A DNA stretch of 64,000 nucleotides, taken from sequence record ON210139.1; one strand, written 5' to 3'. Every line of letters begins with the position of its first letter. The stretch's first letter is position 1. The notes beneath the pieces were generated by a model. That model made no database searches, was not told the origin of the DNA, and saw only the letters and a list, made by a program, of their open reading frames with translations. The position numbers were made by a program, and so were the translations under genes. This document shows, piece after piece, positions 2,911-60,686 of this stretch. Source of the DNA: Escherichia phage EC128.

Positions 2911-3198
2911 ATGAAAACTTTCAAAGAATTTACTTCTACAACTACCCCGGTTTCTACTATTACTGAAGCTACTCTTACTTCTGAAGTTATTAAAGCAAAT
3001 AAAGGACGAGAAGGTAAACCAATGATTAGTTTAGTTGATAGCGAAGAAATCAAAGGTACTGTTTACCTAGGTGATGGGTGGTCTGCTAAAAAGGATGGTG
3101 CTACAATCGTTATCTCTCCTGCTGAAGAAACTGCGTTGTTTAAAGCTAAACACATTTCTGCGGCACATCTCAAGATTATTGCTAAAAATCTTTTGTAA
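2911..3198 (+). CDS. ipI: internal protein I-like, capsid-targeted
   Basis: 95 aa; N-terminus MKTFKEF...TEA resembles the capsid targeting sequence cleaved after Glu; between 57B and tRNAs. Confidence 0.6.
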   Translation: MKTFKEFTSTTTPVSTITEATLTSEVIKANKGREGKPMISLVDSEEIKGTVYLGDGWSAKKDGATIVISPAEETALFKAKHISAAHLKIIAKNLL

Positions 3199-10850: not shown

Positions 10851-10866
10851 TACTTGGAGGGATAAA

Positions 10867-17675: not shown

Positions 17676-17864
17676 ATGAAAATTGAAGCACTTAATCAAG
17701 AAGGAAATATCTACGTCATCATTAACGGCGATTTTTTCGTCGACATGGATGAAGTTACCAGTGAAGAACTTGAAGAACTTCTTAAGAAACGTTATGATAT
17801 GTGTGATGAAGCTGCAACTCATATGGCGTGTGCAATATTCTCTCTTTCATATGTGGTGGAATAA
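17676..17864 (+). CDS. hypothetical acidic small protein
   Basis: 62 aa, AGAGGAG RBS. Confidence 0.5.
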
Positions 17865-22402: not shown

Positions 22403-23118
22403 AAAAATATTTTACTATCTATAAAACTGAAATATTAAATTTAAAGACAGGTATTAAGAAATACTATTATGGTCGACATATAACTAATAATATCAATGAT
22501 TCGTATGTTGGTAGTGGAAATTATATAGAACGTGTAAAAGTGTCAAATGACCACATATTATCAAAAACGGTTTTAGAAGTTTTTGATAATTATGATAAAA
22601 TGGTACAAGCTGAAATATTATATATCATGGCAGGTAAATTGAAATATGGGAAAAACTGTGTTAACCTGTCATACGGGGGTGAAGGAGGAAAGGTTGCAGA
22701 TGAAACTAGGATAAAATGCAAAAAGCATTCTATAAATTTATGGAAAAATCCTAATCATATACAGCATATGAAGAAAAAGATGAAAGAGGTCACATCCACG
22801 CCGGAAGCTAAATTAAACACTTCAATAAAAACTTCGCAACGATATAAGGACCCGGTTTTTGTTAGAAAAGTTAGTAATATTATTAAAAAGAAACTAAGCA
22901 ATCCTGTAGTAAAAGAAAAGCATATTAATGGAATTAAAGCTGCAAAGCGTTCTCATTTAACTATATGGCAGTATGAAGATGAATTATTCGAGCTCTGGAA
23001 AGAAACTAAATGTGGATGGAGAAAATTTACAAAGGAAGCTATAAAACACGGATATCCAAATGAACCGTATCGTAGTATGGTATCAACTTTTCAGAAAAGA
23101 CATTTAGAAGAATCCTAA
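22399..23118 (+). CDS. GIY-YIG homing endonuclease (seg-like)
   Basis: 239 aa; N-terminal KYYYGRHITNNINDSYVGSG; basic C-terminal DNA-binding-like repeats. Confidence 0.7.
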   Translation: MKKYFTIYKTEILNLKTGIKKYYYGRHITNNINDSYVGSGNYIERVKVSNDHILSKTVLEVFDNYDKMVQAEILYIMAGKLKYGKNCVNLSYGGEGGKVADETRIKCKKHSINLWKNPNHIQHMKKKMKEVTSTPEAKLNTSIKTSQRYKDPVFVRKVSNIIKKKLSNPVVKEKHINGIKAAKRSHLTIWQYEDELFELWKETKCGWRKFTKEAIKHGYPNEPYRSMVSTFQKRHLEES

Positions 23119-54954: not shown

Positions 54955-56382
54955 GTGGTAGAAATTATTCTTTCTCATCTTATATTTGATCAAGCTTATT
55001 TTTCAAAAGTTTGGCCATATATGGATTCAGAATATTTTGAAAGTGGTCCAGCTAAAAATACATTCAAATTAATTAAATCTCATGTCAATGAGTATCATAG
55101 CGTTCCATCTATTAATGCGTTAAATGTTGCATTAGAAAATAGTTCATTTACTGAAACAGAATATTCTGGTGTAAAAACACTTATTTCAAAACTAGCTGAT
55201 TCTCCGGAAGACCACAGCTGGTTAGTAAAAGAAACAGAAAAATATGTTCAGCAAAGGGCGATGTTTAATGCTACGTCTAAAATAATCGAAATTCAAACTA
55301 ATGCTGAGCTTCCTCCGGAAAAACGAAATAAGAAAATGCCAGATGTAGGTGCTATTCCTGACATCATGCGCCAAGCATTATCAATTTCATTTGATAGTTA
55401 CGTTGGTCATGATTGGATGGATGACTACGAAGCACGCTGGCTATCTTATATGAATAAAGCTCGTAAAGTTCCGTTTAAACTCAGAATTCTAAACAAAATT
55501 ACGAAAGGCGGAGCTGAAACTGGAACACTGAACGTTTTAATGGCTGGCGTTAACGTTGGTAAGTCATTAGGTCTGTGTTCATTGGCAGCAGATTATTTGC
55601 AGCTCGGACATAATGTTCTTTACATTTCCATGGAAATGGCAGAAGAAGTCTGTGCTAAGCGTATTGATGCTAATATGCTTGATGTTTCTCTTGATGACAT
55701 TGATGATGGGCATATTTCTTACGCTGAGTATAAAGGAAAAATGGAAAAATGGCGTGAGAAATCTACTCTCGGTCGTTTAATCGTTAAACAGTATCCTACT
55801 GGTGGAGCAGATGCTAATACATTTCGGTCGCTTTTAAATGAATTAAAGCTCAAGAAGAATTTTGTTCCAACAATCATTATTGTTGACTATCTAGGTATTT
55901 GTAAATCTTGCCGCATTAGAGTTTATTCAGAAAATAGTTACACAACTGTTAAAGCCATCGCAGAAGAATTGCGTGCTCTGGCTGTTGAAACTGAAACTGT
56001 TCTTTGGACTGCAGCACAGGTTGGTAAACAGGCTTGGGATTCTTCTGATGTTAACATGAGCGATATTGCAGAATCTGCTGGTCTTCCAGCAACAGCTGAT
56101 TTTATGCTTGCGGTCATTGAAACCGAGGAGTTAGCAGCTGCTGAACAACAACTCATTAAGCAAATCAAATCACGATATGGTGATAAGAATAAGTGGAATA
56201 AGTTTTTGATGGGTGTTCAAAAGGGAAATCAGAAATGGGTAGAAATTGAACAAGATTCTACTCCAACTGAAGTGAACGAAGTAGCAGGTTCACAACAGAT
56301 TCAGGCTGAGCAGAATCGCTATCAAAGAAATGAATCCACTCGAGCTCAGTTAGATGCTTTGGCGAATGAATTAAAATTTTAG
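54955..56382 (+). CDS. 41: replicative DNA helicase gp41 (DnaB-like)
   Basis: 475 aa, GTG start after AAGGAG; Walker A GVNVGKS, Walker B IIVDYLG. Confidence 0.9.
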   Translation: MVEIILSHLIFDQAYFSKVWPYMDSEYFESGPAKNTFKLIKSHVNEYHSVPSINALNVALENSSFTETEYSGVKTLISKLADSPEDHSWLVKETEKYVQQRAMFNATSKIIEIQTNAELPPEKRNKKMPDVGAIPDIMRQALSISFDSYVGHDWMDDYEARWLSYMNKARKVPFKLRILNKITKGGAETGTLNVLMAGVNVGKSLGLCSLAADYLQLGHNVLYISMEMAEEVCAKRIDANMLDVSLDDIDDGHISYAEYKGKMEKWREKSTLGRLIVKQYPTGGADANTFRSLLNELKLKKNFVPTIIIVDYLGICKSCRIRVYSENSYTTVKAIAEELRALAVETETVLWTAAQVGKQAWDSSDVNMSDIAESAGLPATADFMLAVIETEELAAAEQQLIKQIKSRYGDKNKWNKFLMGVQKGNQKWVEIEQDSTPTEVNEVAGSQQIQAEQNRYQRNESTRAQLDALANELKF

Positions 56383-56419
56383 TTTACAAGCTGACGAGAC
56401 TATGGTATAGTAGTCTTGT
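56382..56419 (+). promoter_or_regulatory. early promoter
   Basis: GTTTACAAG ... TATGGTATAGTA, twin of 18430. Confidence 0.55.
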
Positions 56420-56440
56420 TGGTTAAATGAGGAGATTGTT

Positions 56441-56623
56441 ATGGAATTGGTAAAGGTAGTTTTTATGGGGTGGTTTAAGAATGAAAGCATGTTTACTAAA
56501 GAAACCACAATGATGAAAGATGACGTTCAATGGGTTACTACTCAGTATGCTGAAGTTAATAAAGCATTAGTTAAAGCTTTCATTGATGACAAGAAAGTAT
56601 GTGAAGTGGATTGCCGAGGATAA
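56441..56623 (+). CDS. dmd: Dmd antitoxin (discriminator of mRNA degradation)
   Basis: 60 aa, MELVKVVFMGWFKNESMFTKE... Confidence 0.8.
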   Translation: MELVKVVFMGWFKNESMFTKETTMMKDDVQWVTTQYAEVNKALVKAFIDDKKVCEVDCRG

Positions 56624-56624
56624 T

Positions 56625-56882
56625 ATGCATATTGTTTTATTTAAACCTACTCCGTATAACGTCAGGAAAAATACGCAATTCAAAGCACTTATTGCAGATA
56701 CGTGGGAATTGGTGCTAGATATTCCAGCAGAAGAAAGTCCTCCATTTGGTCGAGTGGAATTTATTAAGTTTGCTGTACGTCCTACGAAGCGACAGATTCG
56801 TCAATGTAAAAGATACTTTCGTAAAATCGTCAAGCTAGAGAAACAGTTTGTAACATGTGATTACGCAGAAGTTTTAAAATAA
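56625..56882 (+). CDS. hypothetical basic protein
   Basis: 85 aa from ATG 56625. Confidence 0.5.
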   Translation: MHIVLFKPTPYNVRKNTQFKALIADTWELVLDIPAEESPPFGRVEFIKFAVRPTKRQIRQCKRYFRKIVKLEKQFVTCDYAEVLK

Positions 56883-56884
56883 CT

Positions 56885-56922
56885 GTTTACTTTTGTTGGA
56901 AATTGAGATATTATATAAACAT
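56885..56922 (+). promoter_or_regulatory. early promoter
   Basis: GTTTAC ... GAGATATTAT. Confidence 0.5.
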
Positions 56923-56942
56923 AAACTACTGAGGAGATTATC

Positions 56943-57236
56943 ATGAAAAAATTTGTTTTTGCTGCAATTTTTGCTTTAGCTTCTTGTGCTGCTCAGCCTG
57001 CTATGGCAGGTTATGATAAAGATTTGTGCGAATGGTCTATGACTGCAGATCAGACTGAAGTTGAAACTCAAATTGAAGCGGATATTATGAATATCGTTGA
57101 GCGCGATCGTCCTGAAATGAAAGCTGAAGTGCAAAAACAACTTAAGTCTGGTGGTGTAATGCAGTATAATTATGTTCTGTATTGCGATAAAAACTTTAAT
57201 AATAAAAATATCATCGCTGAAGTGGTAGGTGAATAA
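56943..57236 (+). CDS. sp: periplasmic superinfection-exclusion protein Spackle-like
   Basis: 97 aa with signal peptide MKKFVFAAIFALASCAAQPAMA. Confidence 0.7.
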   Translation: MKKFVFAAIFALASCAAQPAMAGYDKDLCEWSMTADQTEVETQIEADIMNIVERDRPEMKAEVQKQLKSGGVMQYNYVLYCDKNFNNKNIIAEVVGE

Positions 57237-57862
57237 TGCTTTATCAAATGCACAAGTGTAAAGACACGTACAAATATAAAGGTGCCCAGTGTTATATCAT
57301 TAATCGTGAAAACGCAGGTCCAGGCCATTCGCATCAATCACGGTTTGTATTCGTTAAAAATAATGAAATTATAGCAGTTGCTAATTATATGCTTGTGACC
57401 AATGATGTTAATCCGGTGCCTTTCACATATGACAATCTAATGGACTTGGCATATGATTATAATTGGTTTAATCATGATACTTTGGCTCATATTGAAGGCG
57501 TAGGATTTGACATCTCTTATTCTAGTTATTCGTTGTGCCCTATGAGCCGAGCTCATAAAGAGCCTGAATATTTTTCATTTCGTCGGCGTGTAGACTTTAA
57601 ACGCAGTACAGAGTATGTCGGTGGAATCTTTGTTAAAGATAATCGAATTACTCGCATTATTTATCCTTTGGGCTTTGGTCAAAAAGATATTGATGTTGAT
57701 TTAGACTTTACTGAAAATATCATTAATCATATTGCTTCTGTGTATTTTGATATTGATCACAAAATTGTAATATGTGGATATGAATTGCCATCTGAAAAAC
57801 AGTCTAAAGTAAATGTTTCTATTGATGACCAAATTTTTAATGCTTTTATGAATAGAGGTTAA
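57236..57862 (+). CDS. hypothetical protein
   Basis: 208 aa, coupled to sp. Confidence 0.55.
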   Translation: MLYQMHKCKDTYKYKGAQCYIINRENAGPGHSHQSRFVFVKNNEIIAVANYMLVTNDVNPVPFTYDNLMDLAYDYNWFNHDTLAHIEGVGFDISYSSYSLCPMSRAHKEPEYFSFRRRVDFKRSTEYVGGIFVKDNRITRIIYPLGFGQKDIDVDLDFTENIINHIASVYFDIDHKIVICGYELPSEKQSKVNVSIDDQIFNAFMNRG

Positions 57863-57863
57863 T

Positions 57864-58028
57864 ATGAAAACATATAAAGAATTTATTAAAGAAGATATGG
57901 TCGCTGGAGATTCAGGTGGTAATCCTGAAAATATCTCTACTGGAACAACATCAGGTGCTGTAGTAAATAAAGGTCCTGAACAGATTCCTAAAAAGAAAAA
58001 AGAGGAATCTAAAGAAAAAGAAGAGTAA
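57864..58028 (+). CDS. small protein with capsid-targeting-sequence-like N-terminus
   Basis: 54 aa, MKTYKEFIKE...; below ORF-track cutoff; directly upstream of gene 61. Confidence 0.4.
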   Translation: MKTYKEFIKEDMVAGDSGGNPENISTGTTSGAVVNKGPEQIPKKKKEESKEKEE

Positions 58029-58030
58029 AA

Positions 58031-59059
58031 ATGTCATCAATACCTTGGATTGATAATGAGTTTGCATACCGTGCATTAGCTCATTTACCTAAATTCACAC
58101 AAGTAAATAATAGTTCAACTTTTAAATTACGGTTTAGATGCCCAGTGTGTGGAGATTCAAAAACCGACCAGAATAAAGCTCGTGGATGGTATTATGGCGA
58201 TAATAATGAAGGAAATATTCATTGTTATAACTGTAACTATCATGCACCAATCGGAATATATTTAAAGGAGTTTGAACCTGATTTATATCGTGAGTATATC
58301 TTTGAAATAAGAAAAGAAAAAGGTAAAAGTCGTCCAGTAGAAAAACCTAAAGAACTTCCTAAACAACCTGAGAAGAAAATAATTAAATCTCTTCCGTCAT
58401 GTGTTAGATTAGATAAACTGACGGAAGACCATCCAATTATAAAATATGTAAAAGCTCGTTGTATTCCAAAGGATAAATGGAAATATCTTTGGTTTACAAC
58501 CGAATGGCCTAAATTGGTTAATAGCATAGCACCGGGAACATATAAAAAGGAAATACCTGAGTCTCGTCTTGTTATTCCAATTTATAATGCTAATGGAAAA
58601 GCTGAGTCTTTTCAAGGACGTGCATTAAAGAAAGATGCTCCTCAAAAATATATCACCATCAAAGCTTATCCTGAAGCAACAAAAATCTATGGAGTCGAAC
58701 GAGTTAAAGATGGTGATGTATATGTTCTAGAAGGACCTATAGATTCACTTTTTATTGAAAATGGTATAGCTATTACGGGTGGTCAATTAGACCTAGAAGT
58801 TGTTCCATTTAAAGATAGACGAGTGTGGGTCTTAGATAATGAACCTCGTCACCCTGACACTATTAAACGAATGACTAAATTAGTTGATGCAGGAGAAAGG
58901 GTTATGTTTTGGGATAAATCTCCCTGGAAATCAAAAGATGTTAATGATATGATTAGAAAGGAAGGTGCAACCCCTGAACAAATTATGGAATATATGAAAA
59001 ATAATATTGCCCAGGGGTTAATGGCTAAAATGCGGCTATCTAAATATGCTAAGATTTAA
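58031..59059 (+). CDS. 61: DNA primase gp61
   Basis: 342 aa; zinc ribbon CPVCGDS...CYNCNYH; Toprim-like core. Confidence 0.9.
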   Translation: MSSIPWIDNEFAYRALAHLPKFTQVNNSSTFKLRFRCPVCGDSKTDQNKARGWYYGDNNEGNIHCYNCNYHAPIGIYLKEFEPDLYREYIFEIRKEKGKSRPVEKPKELPKQPEKKIIKSLPSCVRLDKLTEDHPIIKYVKARCIPKDKWKYLWFTTEWPKLVNSIAPGTYKKEIPESRLVIPIYNANGKAESFQGRALKKDAPQKYITIKAYPEATKIYGVERVKDGDVYVLEGPIDSLFIENGIAITGGQLDLEVVPFKDRRVWVLDNEPRHPDTIKRMTKLVDAGERVMFWDKSPWKSKDVNDMIRKEGATPEQIMEYMKNNIAQGLMAKMRLSKYAKI

Positions 59060-59256
59060 ATTAACCCAACTAAAGCAAATGCTAAATCTACGAATGTATC
59101 AAGAGTAACTACTGGAATACTAACGCCATGAGCAATAGCAACTGGCGATAAAACAAAATTCCAAAGTAAAATTCCTATCATAGCAGAAATAGTAAAAGCT
59201 ATACGTTTCTTATTACCTTTTATGGCATTAACAAGTGCCATTAATTTTTGTACCAT
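59056..59256 (-). CDS. antisense small hydrophobic membrane protein
   Basis: 66 aa on the minus strand in an intergenic gap; AAGGAGG SD 4 nt before the ATG; tail-to-tail 4-nt overlap with gene 61. Confidence 0.5.
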   Translation of the reverse strand: MVQKLMALVNAIKGNKKRIAFTISAMIGILLWNFVLSPVAIAHGVSIPVVTLDTFVDLAFALVGLI

Positions 59257-59291
59257 ATGTCCTCCTTTAAATTAATATTTATCATAAATTT

Positions 59292-59329
59292 GTTTACTTT
59301 CTCAGCTTGTTATGGTATTATAAAATAAA
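59292..59329 (+). promoter_or_regulatory. early promoter
   Basis: GTTTAC ... TATGGTATTAT. Confidence 0.55.
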
Positions 59330-59346
59330 TTGCTGAGGATGATATA

Positions 59347-60686
<1,340 letters not shown>

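Follow-up and report, generated by a model that had tools for sequence, protein, structure and literature searches.

A stretch of 64,000 nucleotides (nt) from Escherichia phage EC128 (sequence record ON210139.1), referred to here as the window, contains directly upstream of the DNA primase gene 61 a small open reading frame (ORF) which is gene 61.1 of phage T4. The ORF begins with ATG, comprises 54 codons followed by a TAA stop and encodes, according to the ORF list and the sequence itself, the product MKTYKEFIKEDMVAGDSGGNPENISTGTTSGAVVNKGPEQIPKKKKEESKEKEE. An initial annotation of this DNA had described an unannotated ORF of 54 amino acids (aa) upstream of primase, far from the loci of the internal proteins (IPs), with an N-terminus resembling their capsid-targeting sequence (CTS), and had seen in it a candidate for a small injected peptide that counters host defences. 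The ORF lies at exactly 57864-58028 on the plus strand, but it is not unannotated: gene 61.1 is already present in T4 (NP_049649.1) and in many T4-like records. It is a real gene that was previously annotated as hypothetical, and the T4 counterpart, located between 61.2 and primase gene 61, is listed as 'gp61.1 hypothetical protein'. The window protein is 96% identical to the T4 protein with two differences, Y4F and T26I, and the core peptide reads DMVAGDSGGNPENIS[T/I]GTTSGAVVNK. The surrounding 2.2 kilobases (kb) are 98% identical to T4 and the genome is T4-like (Tequatrovirus), with the window in reverse orientation to NC_000866.

The gene is tightly packed between its neighbours (Table 1). 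The stop codon of 61.2/adfA (57860-57862) sits between a GAGG Shine-Dalgarno sequence and the ATG of gene 61.1, leaving a gap of 1 nt, and only 2 nt separate the stop codon of gene 61.1 from the ATG of the primase gene. An Rfam scan of 56300-59400 yielded no RNA family.

Table 1 Gene 61.1, its predicted parts and other features of the window
Feature	Position	Strand	Basis or remark
Gene 61.1	57864..58028	+	T4 NP_049649.1 96%; PHROG 1823 E 7e-34; ratio of nonsynonymous to synonymous substitutions (dN/dS) 0.087
Codons 1-10, MKTYKEFIKE, CTS-like propeptide with predicted gp21 cut after Glu10 (I-K-E)	57864..57893	+	Alignments with the CTSs of the IPs and with gp23
Codons 11-38, DMVAGDSGGNPENISTGTTSGAVVNKGP, conserved core with homology to gp23* from its mature N-terminus onwards (28 residues, 66-93, N-arm/N-fist)	57894..57977	+	
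Codons 39-54, EQIPKKKKEESKEKEE, Lys-rich tail	57978..58025	+	Family alignments
GAGG Shine-Dalgarno sequence	57855..57858	+	5 nt before the ATG of gene 61.1; direct sequence reading
Gene 61 (DNA primase), 342-aa ORF	58031..59059	+	98% identity to T4 gene 61
Gene 61.2 = adfA (anti-DarT factor A)	57236..57862	+	Pfam PF23813 AdfA E 4.9e-137
sp	56943-57236	+	Anti-toxin island
61.4/tifA	~56583-56882	+	Pfam DUF7279
dmd	56441-56623	+	Anti-toxin island
ipI (internal protein I)	2911..3198	+	Six-frame scan; matches T4 IPI

Homologues of gp61.1 were detected by tblastn in about 1,500 phage records, among them Escherichia, Klebsiella, Aeromonas, Acinetobacter, Vibrio and other phages, and an exhaustive HMMER search and a scan of IMG/VR added further metagenomic members. 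The window protein belongs to PHROG 1823 (residues 1-54 on the 54-position profile, E 7e-34), and its core also matches the C-terminus of PHROG 2086 (E 2.6e-16). The family comprises two architectures, namely short forms of 50-64 aa (PHROG 1823) and long forms of 120-250 aa (PHROG 2086), which carry an N-terminal domain of about 100 residues in front of the same core. Both PHROGs occupy the same position upstream of primase and both are annotated as 'unknown function'; the window protein represents the minimal form. The alignments reveal the invariant pattern [hydrophobic]-x-E-[DEAS]-MVAGDSGG-x4-IA-x-G-x-TSG-x-V-x3-GP followed by a Lys/Arg-rich tail, and within the core G15, D16, G27 and G31 are invariant. 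In T4-type phages the tail contains both K and E, and that of most relatives is strongly basic. Pfam, NCBIfam and PADLOC yielded no family for gp61.1.

The GDSGG of the core recalls trypsin-like serine proteases, in which the catalytic Ser of this motif is invariant and the fold comprises about 220 residues. Such an assignment was rejected, since Ser17 is replaced by Ala in many homologues (GDAGG), 54 residues are too few for such a fold, the model shows coil and Pfam gave no hit. Two peculiarities of other members may be added. In a group of T4-like human-gut contigs from IMG/VR (L038 and L043-L046, ~2498-2680) the 61.1 homologues contain in-frame TAG codons (MVK*LKQLVEEVVAGD...), and L043 has TAG where L038 has a Gln codon (NP*NIAS vs NPQNIAA), which suggests a recoding of TAG to Gln in these phages. 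In other sequences (L041, L071, P0030, P0045 and P0048) the ORF extends beyond the 61.1-like core and K-tail into another module, which starts with a CTS-like FKxF (...KKKKRKPIKTFKEFKNS..., ...KRKMNEVSNFKQFVEGL...); this suggests a fusion with the downstream gene in those distant phages.

The core is preceded by a candidate cleavage motif. A Glu is located one or two residues before MVAGD in 126 of the 128 distinct homologue junctions, and P3 is occupied by L or I in 98 cases and by M, V or F in 25, in agreement with the L/I-x-Glu specificity of the prohead protease gp21. In the long forms the motif is internal, at about residue 105, and it must therefore be more than a feature of N-terminal translation. 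The gene is under purifying selection: among the short-form relatives dN/dS is 0.087 overall, 0.23 for codons 1-10 and 0.067 for the core, at a proportion of synonymous differences (pS) of 0.56. An AlphaFold2 (AF2) model of the 54-aa protein based on the family alignment places a helix at residues 4-13, the rest of the chain being coil (predicted local distance difference test, pLDDT, 59). In the model of one long form the helical N-domain reached a pLDDT of ~80 and the 61.1-like core stayed below 50; a Foldseek comparison of this N-domain with PDB folds gave no match (best E 4.7). By itself gp61.1 is thus predicted to be disordered, and a helix followed by coil is what one would expect of a peptide that acquires its fold on binding a partner. 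The protein is conserved across the whole T4 family (Straboviridae).

The N-terminus of gp61.1 leads to the internal proteins of the T4 head. IPII and IPIII of T4 both start with MKTYQEFIAE and IPI starts with MKTFKEFTSTTTPVSTITE. The window protein (MKTYKEFIKE) is identical to the CTS of IPII and IPIII in eight of ten positions and to the MKTFKEF of IPI in six of seven, and the first seven residues of T4 gp61.1 (MKTFKEFIKE) are the same as those of IPI. A six-frame translation of the whole T4 genome, assembled from retrieved pieces, contains MKT[FY]xEF four times, namely at IPI, IPII, IPIII and gp61.1, whereas composition predicts 0.005 occurrences and 100 shuffled versions gave none; the window has two copies of the motif, one belonging to ipI (at 2911) and one to gene 61.1. 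According to a review of the mutagenesis by Mullaney and Black, residues 4 and 7 of the CTS are the main determinants of targeting, and residues 8 and 10 those of processing (PMC9026906). At all four positions gp61.1 is identical to IPIII; Y4 and F7 are those of IPII and IPIII, and the propeptide ends with I8-K9-E10, an L/I-x-Glu motif of the gp21 type. The differences to T4 IPIII, K5 and K9, are each seen in CTSs from the ip loci of phage JS98, namely in IPIII (MKTYKEFIAE) and in an ORF of the ipI locus (MKTYQEFIKE). This match is far beyond chance, and by alignment the N-terminus of gp61.1 can be regarded as a genuine CTS-type sequence. The likeness claimed initially therefore holds; of the conservation in homologues on which the claim had been made to depend, the cleavage motif is kept in essentially all members and the full CTS only in T-even-like relatives. 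A CTS-like start K[TS][FY]xEF recurs among the short forms but not universally, and N-termini without the full CTS are MKSFKEVMNE in JS98-like phages, MTLLEKYKQSLSE in another clade and MIGFKQFVEENKLKE in RB49-like phages.

Some observations on CTS-like sequences and ip genes were made in passing. The only other T4 ORF which is loosely CTS-like under a relaxed pattern is Ndd.1 (166316, minus strand; MKSFKDVKVG), and it lacks F7 and the hydrophobic-x-E. In phage JS98 a CTS is carried by five or more ORFs, orf112, orf114, ipIII and orf135 among them, and an ORF of 97 aa at 22554 (minus strand) in the region of its ipI locus, which starts with MKTYQEFIKES, is missing from the feature table of the record. 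In the window ipII and ipIII are wholly absent (10856-10863; T4 65359-66454 is missing), and the distance from the lysozyme gene e to denV is ~6 base pairs (bp) here vs 1.1 kb with both internal-protein genes in T4; ipI is retained. The distance of gene 61.1 from the ip loci was stated correctly, with ipI 55 kb away and ipII and ipIII deleted in this phage.

The remainder of gp61.1 is related to the major capsid protein gp23. Residues 2-38 align with residues 57-93 of T4 gp23 ungapped and with 16 of 37 positions identical (BLASTP, pairwise E 1e-8), the pair being KTYKEFIKE↓DMVAGDSGGNPENISTGTTSGAVVNKGP and QAFGSFLTE↓AEIGGDHGYNATNIAAGQTSGAVTQIGP. In this alignment Glu10 of gp61.1 falls on Glu65 of gp23, and it is the first 65 residues of gp23 which are removed by gp21 (PMC9546572). 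As gp61.1 is in register with a gp23 segment that spans a real gp21 cut, the idea of its cleavage is strengthened. When the 61.1 family was matched to gp23 N-termini with hhalign, the probability was 95.5% (E 1.4e-8; residues 4-50 of 61.1, 59-105 of gp23), and for the long forms the profile-profile comparison gave 95.2%, with no gp23 homology seen to extend into their N-domain. When the 61.1 profile was searched against all PDB sequences, T4 gp23 was the sole match (E 1.2e-5). The Lys-rich tail lies opposite gp23 94-105 (AVMGMVRRAIPN) in the profile alignment. Furthermore, CTS positions 4, 7, 8 and 10 correspond to F59, F62, L63 and E65 of gp23, so that CTS, gp61.1 and gp23 share one pattern before the cut: an aromatic residue at -7, hydrophobic residues at -4 and -3 and Glu at -1. 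The N-terminus of gp23, used as query in a word-indexed protein search, yielded fragments only.

The corresponding segment of gp23 has been described. Residues 66-105 of gp23* are disordered inside the unexpanded head, where they are thought to contact the scaffolding core, and form the external N-arm and N-fist after expansion; the head-length mutations A66D, A94V and G97S are located here (PMC9546572). What gp61.1 has in common with gp23 is the cleavage Glu in register and the motif GD-G...NIA-G-TSGAV...GP; what it lacks is the HK97-fold body. It has no Pfam hit at E up to 10 and so does not belong to the Gp23 family (PF07068), whose model covers gp23 88-517, the homology to gp61.1 being confined to gp23 57-105. 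Judged by these comparisons gp61.1 is not a capsid protein, even if some GenBank and UniRef records label a 61.1 homologue 'major capsid domain-containing protein'. In every phage compared the two families keep distinct signatures, [DE]MVAGDSGG and NKGP-x4-KKKK for 61.1 and AEIGGDHGY and QIGPAVMGMVRR for gp23; the IMG/VR scan for gp23 covered mostly marine phages and provided three matched phage pairs. Genes 61.1 and 23 are 52% identical at the nucleotide level and 35% at third codon positions. The low third-position identity indicates that the duplication is ancient and has been maintained, and a recent duplication or gene conversion from gene 23 was rejected on account of these values and the distinct signatures. 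The N-fist motif of gp23 was found in none of 76 marine T4-like gp23 sequences, which retain the hydrophobic-x-E↓A cut; motif and 61.1 family thus appear to co-occur only in Straboviridae.

In the window the region 56441-57862 (plus strand) between helicase gene 41 and gene 61.1 corresponds to the anti-toxin island of T4, the last gene of which owes its name adfA to Srikant et al. (2022). These authors considered the region a possible anti-toxin-antitoxin (anti-TA) island and the other genes there as candidates (Srikant et al. 2022). The head-assembly gene 40 is located in the same early cluster as 61.1. In a set of 71 loci, each of which contains 61.1 by construction, primase is present in all, and a primase homologue follows 61.1 in 71 of 71 cases, usually within 60 nt and also where its identity to the T4 primase is as low as 36-45%; within 2.5 kb upstream dmd is found in 14, tifA in 23, sp in 33 and adfA in 7 of these loci. 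By this distribution gene 61.1 behaves as a core gene and not as an accessory or arms-race gene. One T4-like cyanophage and one phage of the Ackermannviridae have a related primase with unrelated genes upstream. On the other side of primase, and inserted relative to T4 (537 bp vs T4 17709-17711), an ORF of 186 aa (59347-59907, plus strand) lies in front of dam. It weakly matches DpnII (Pfam E 0.0045, below the cut-off) and a PADLOC type II restriction endonuclease (E 9e-5) and would be a GATC-type endonuclease-like gene adjoining the GATC methylase Dam; T4T has 'dam.1' at this place.

Among known systems the internal proteins are similar to gp61.1 in design. Like IPI, IPII and IPIII (for the CTS see Mullaney and Black 1996), gp61.1 starts with MKT[FY]xEF[I]xE, ending in the L/I-x-Glu of gp21. 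Unlike them it is encoded outside the variable ip loci and conserved family-wide; its operon is early and has no late promoter in the vicinity, and its predicted mature part of 44 residues is acidic in T4-type phages and homologous to gp23, not to the IPs. The hallmark of the IPs, a basic mature protein from a variable ip locus, is therefore not found in gp61.1 from its constant locus; judged by its N-terminus it would work like the CTS-bearing internal proteins and may belong with them. To Dmd, TifA (61.4) and AdfA (61.2), which are likewise small and encoded adjacently in the same early operon, gp61.1 has no sequence relation; with no match in Pfam, NCBIfam or PADLOC it shares with these families the genomic position only. 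A last parallel is the Gol peptide, which activates the Lit protease via EF-Tu and is, like the segment matched by gp61.1, short and derived from the first quarter of gp23. A review describes Gol as the most conserved region of gp23. By alignment invariants Gol would lie at about gp23 residues 100-128, downstream of the gp61.1-like part.

Taken together, these data point, tentatively and with somewhat less than even confidence, to gp61.1 as a conserved, disordered mimic of the gp23 N-arm which docks onto the core of the prohead, is taken up there and is processed by gp21. The amphipathic N-terminal helix with its aromatic residue at -7, hydrophobic residues at -4 and -3 and Glu at -1, together with the gp23-like core, would dock on the prohead scaffolding core in the same way as the N-terminal region of gp23 and the CTSs of IPI-III. 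Cleavage by gp21 after Glu10 (I-K-E↓D) would then release a peptide of 44 residues and 4.6 kDa, DMVAGD...KKKKEESKEKEE, which could help to assemble the head or reside inside it as an internal peptide. That gp61.1 docks, is cleaved and possibly stays in the head or is injected is what we infer from sequence; a bolder version is unlikely in our estimation. According to it gp61.1 would be a universal prohead component of the Straboviridae, a free-standing copy of the part of gp23 that docks to the scaffold and is recognised by the protease, which enters the core and is cleaved by gp21 and whose Lys-rich product of 40-45 residues either tunes capsid geometry in competition with gp23 N-arms for the core or enters the next host with the DNA, and the family would be the source from which the CTS of the IPs arose.

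Several observations weigh against packaging and cleavage of gp61.1. The predicted mature peptide is acidic here (net charge -2, isoelectric point ~5) and internal proteins are basic; in most relatives its net charge is predicted to be +1 to +7. Gene 61.1 is part of an early operon with anti-toxin genes and primase, with a sigma-70-like promoter before dmd and a terminator-like hairpin after primase, and no late promoter TATAAATA was found on the coding strand within 26 kb upstream. In T4 time-course RNA-seq its transcript belongs to the early class, and ipI-III were also clustered as 'early' in the same data (Wolfram-Schauerte et al.). At the protein level, the table of a time-resolved whole-cell T4 infection proteome lists Sp (P39230), gp61.2 (P39229) and then P39226; since it skips P39228, gp61.1 was not detected there, and no virion proteome listing gp61.1 was found. 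The 61.1 protein of JS98 starts with MKSFKEVMNE, with V at position 7, and five ORFs of the JS98 ip loci retain MKTYxEF. As the N-terminus drifted in JS98 while its IPs did not, it is less constrained than a working CTS; with no sign in this phage that the start of 61.1 varies together with the CTSs of the IPs, such a co-variation was rejected. In addition, most of the distant homologues have a domain of about 100 residues of unknown fold instead of a CTS-like N-terminus, and the universal linkage to primase would fit a role in replication equally well.

The homology to gp23 57-105, the early expression and the predicted disorder would also be compatible with a mimic of the gp23 N-arm that is never packaged, but is made early and occupies in the cytoplasm a partner of nascent or unassembled gp23, such as a chaperone, the gp21 zymogen, EF-Tu or a host sensor of capsid protein, and in this way tunes head assembly or blunts capsid-sensing immunity. 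The neighbours dmd, tifA and adfA directly inhibit host toxins, and gp23 is a known trigger or partner of host factors, of Lit through the Gol peptide and EF-Tu and of CmdTAC through the chaperone CmdC. However, a mimic of the trigger should activate a sensor and not block it, and in the presumed Gol region at about gp23 100-128, as placed by alignment invariants, gp61.1 has only its Lys-rich tail. Conservation throughout the family argues against a host-specific target, and neither the hydrophobic-x-Glu in 126 of 128 junctions nor the complete CTS of the T-even forms would be explained. This alternative is considered rather unlikely. Still less probable is an accessory factor of replication which acts with gp61 and gp41, for example through binding of the Lys-rich tail to DNA or an acidic partner, the gp23 likeness being a relic of its origin. 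It would account for the downstream primase in 71 of 71 loci despite only 36-60% primase identity to T4, for the location in an early operon, with helicase gene 41 on one side and primase gene 61 on the other, and for the Lys/Arg-rich tail of all members. Synteny by itself is weak evidence though, because gene order is conserved across the whole module, and the cyanophage and the Ackermannviridae phage have the same primase without an upstream 61.1 homologue, from which it follows that primase does not need 61.1. What is conserved in the protein is the gp23-like core and the cleavage motif and no recognisable domain for binding DNA or primase; moreover, we know of no 61.1-like subunit in the reconstituted T4 replisome.

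The role in anti-defence proposed initially would make gp61.1 a further member of the anti-toxin island, that is, a small cytoplasmic inhibitor of a host TA or abortive-infection system, injected or made early. Gene 61.1 follows adfA directly, shares the early operon with dmd and tifA and lies in what was described as a possible anti-TA island (Srikant et al. 2022), and CTS-bearing internal proteins such as IPI are anti-restriction factors. Against this, dmd, tifA, sp and adfA are patchy (14, 23, 33 and 7 of 71 loci) and 61.1 and primase constant, the dN/dS of 0.07 in the core gives no sign of arms-race diversification, and PADLOC and Pfam contain no match. With 61.1 beside primase in every Straboviridae locus examined and under strong purifying selection, and ip genes being variable, such a function is a poor fit and we hold it to be improbable; its one support is the position at the end of the dmd-tifA-adfA island, and an injected peptide that counters the host was the least supported part of the initial annotation. 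That gene 61.1 might be a spurious ORF or a functionless leftover from a partly duplicated gene 23 could be concluded from its shortness, the missing Pfam family and the protein unseen in one proteome. Its occurrence in about 1,500 phage records, a dN/dS of 0.087 at a pS of 0.56, the conservation of reading frame, Shine-Dalgarno sequence and position, and the third-position identity of 35% to gene 23, which indicates an ancient and maintained duplication, leave such a reading hardly any credibility, and conservation effectively refutes it.

The assembly of the T4 head is among the best-studied morphogenetic pathways, and gene 61.1 is without an assigned function in the literature searched, where gp61.1 is mentioned in gene tables only. 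The architecture of CTS, copy of the gp23 N-arm and Lys-rich tail, the register with the gp23 cut and the family-wide motif appear to be undescribed there. Should packaging be refuted, gene 61.1 would still be a conserved gp23 mimic adjoining primase. If gp61.1 is packaged and cut, it would be the fourth CTS-bearing protein of T4 and, unlike IPI-III, one conserved family-wide. On the bolder version of the model, held to be unlikely, the pattern of an aromatic residue at -7, hydrophobic residues at -4 and -3 and Glu at -1 in gp23, gp61.1 and the CTSs of the IPs would constitute one docking code. The common register of gp23, gp61.1 and the CTS would explain the CTS as a mimic of the capsid protein's own pre-cleavage segment, an explanation which bears on the use of the CTS for loading foreign proteins into T4 heads.

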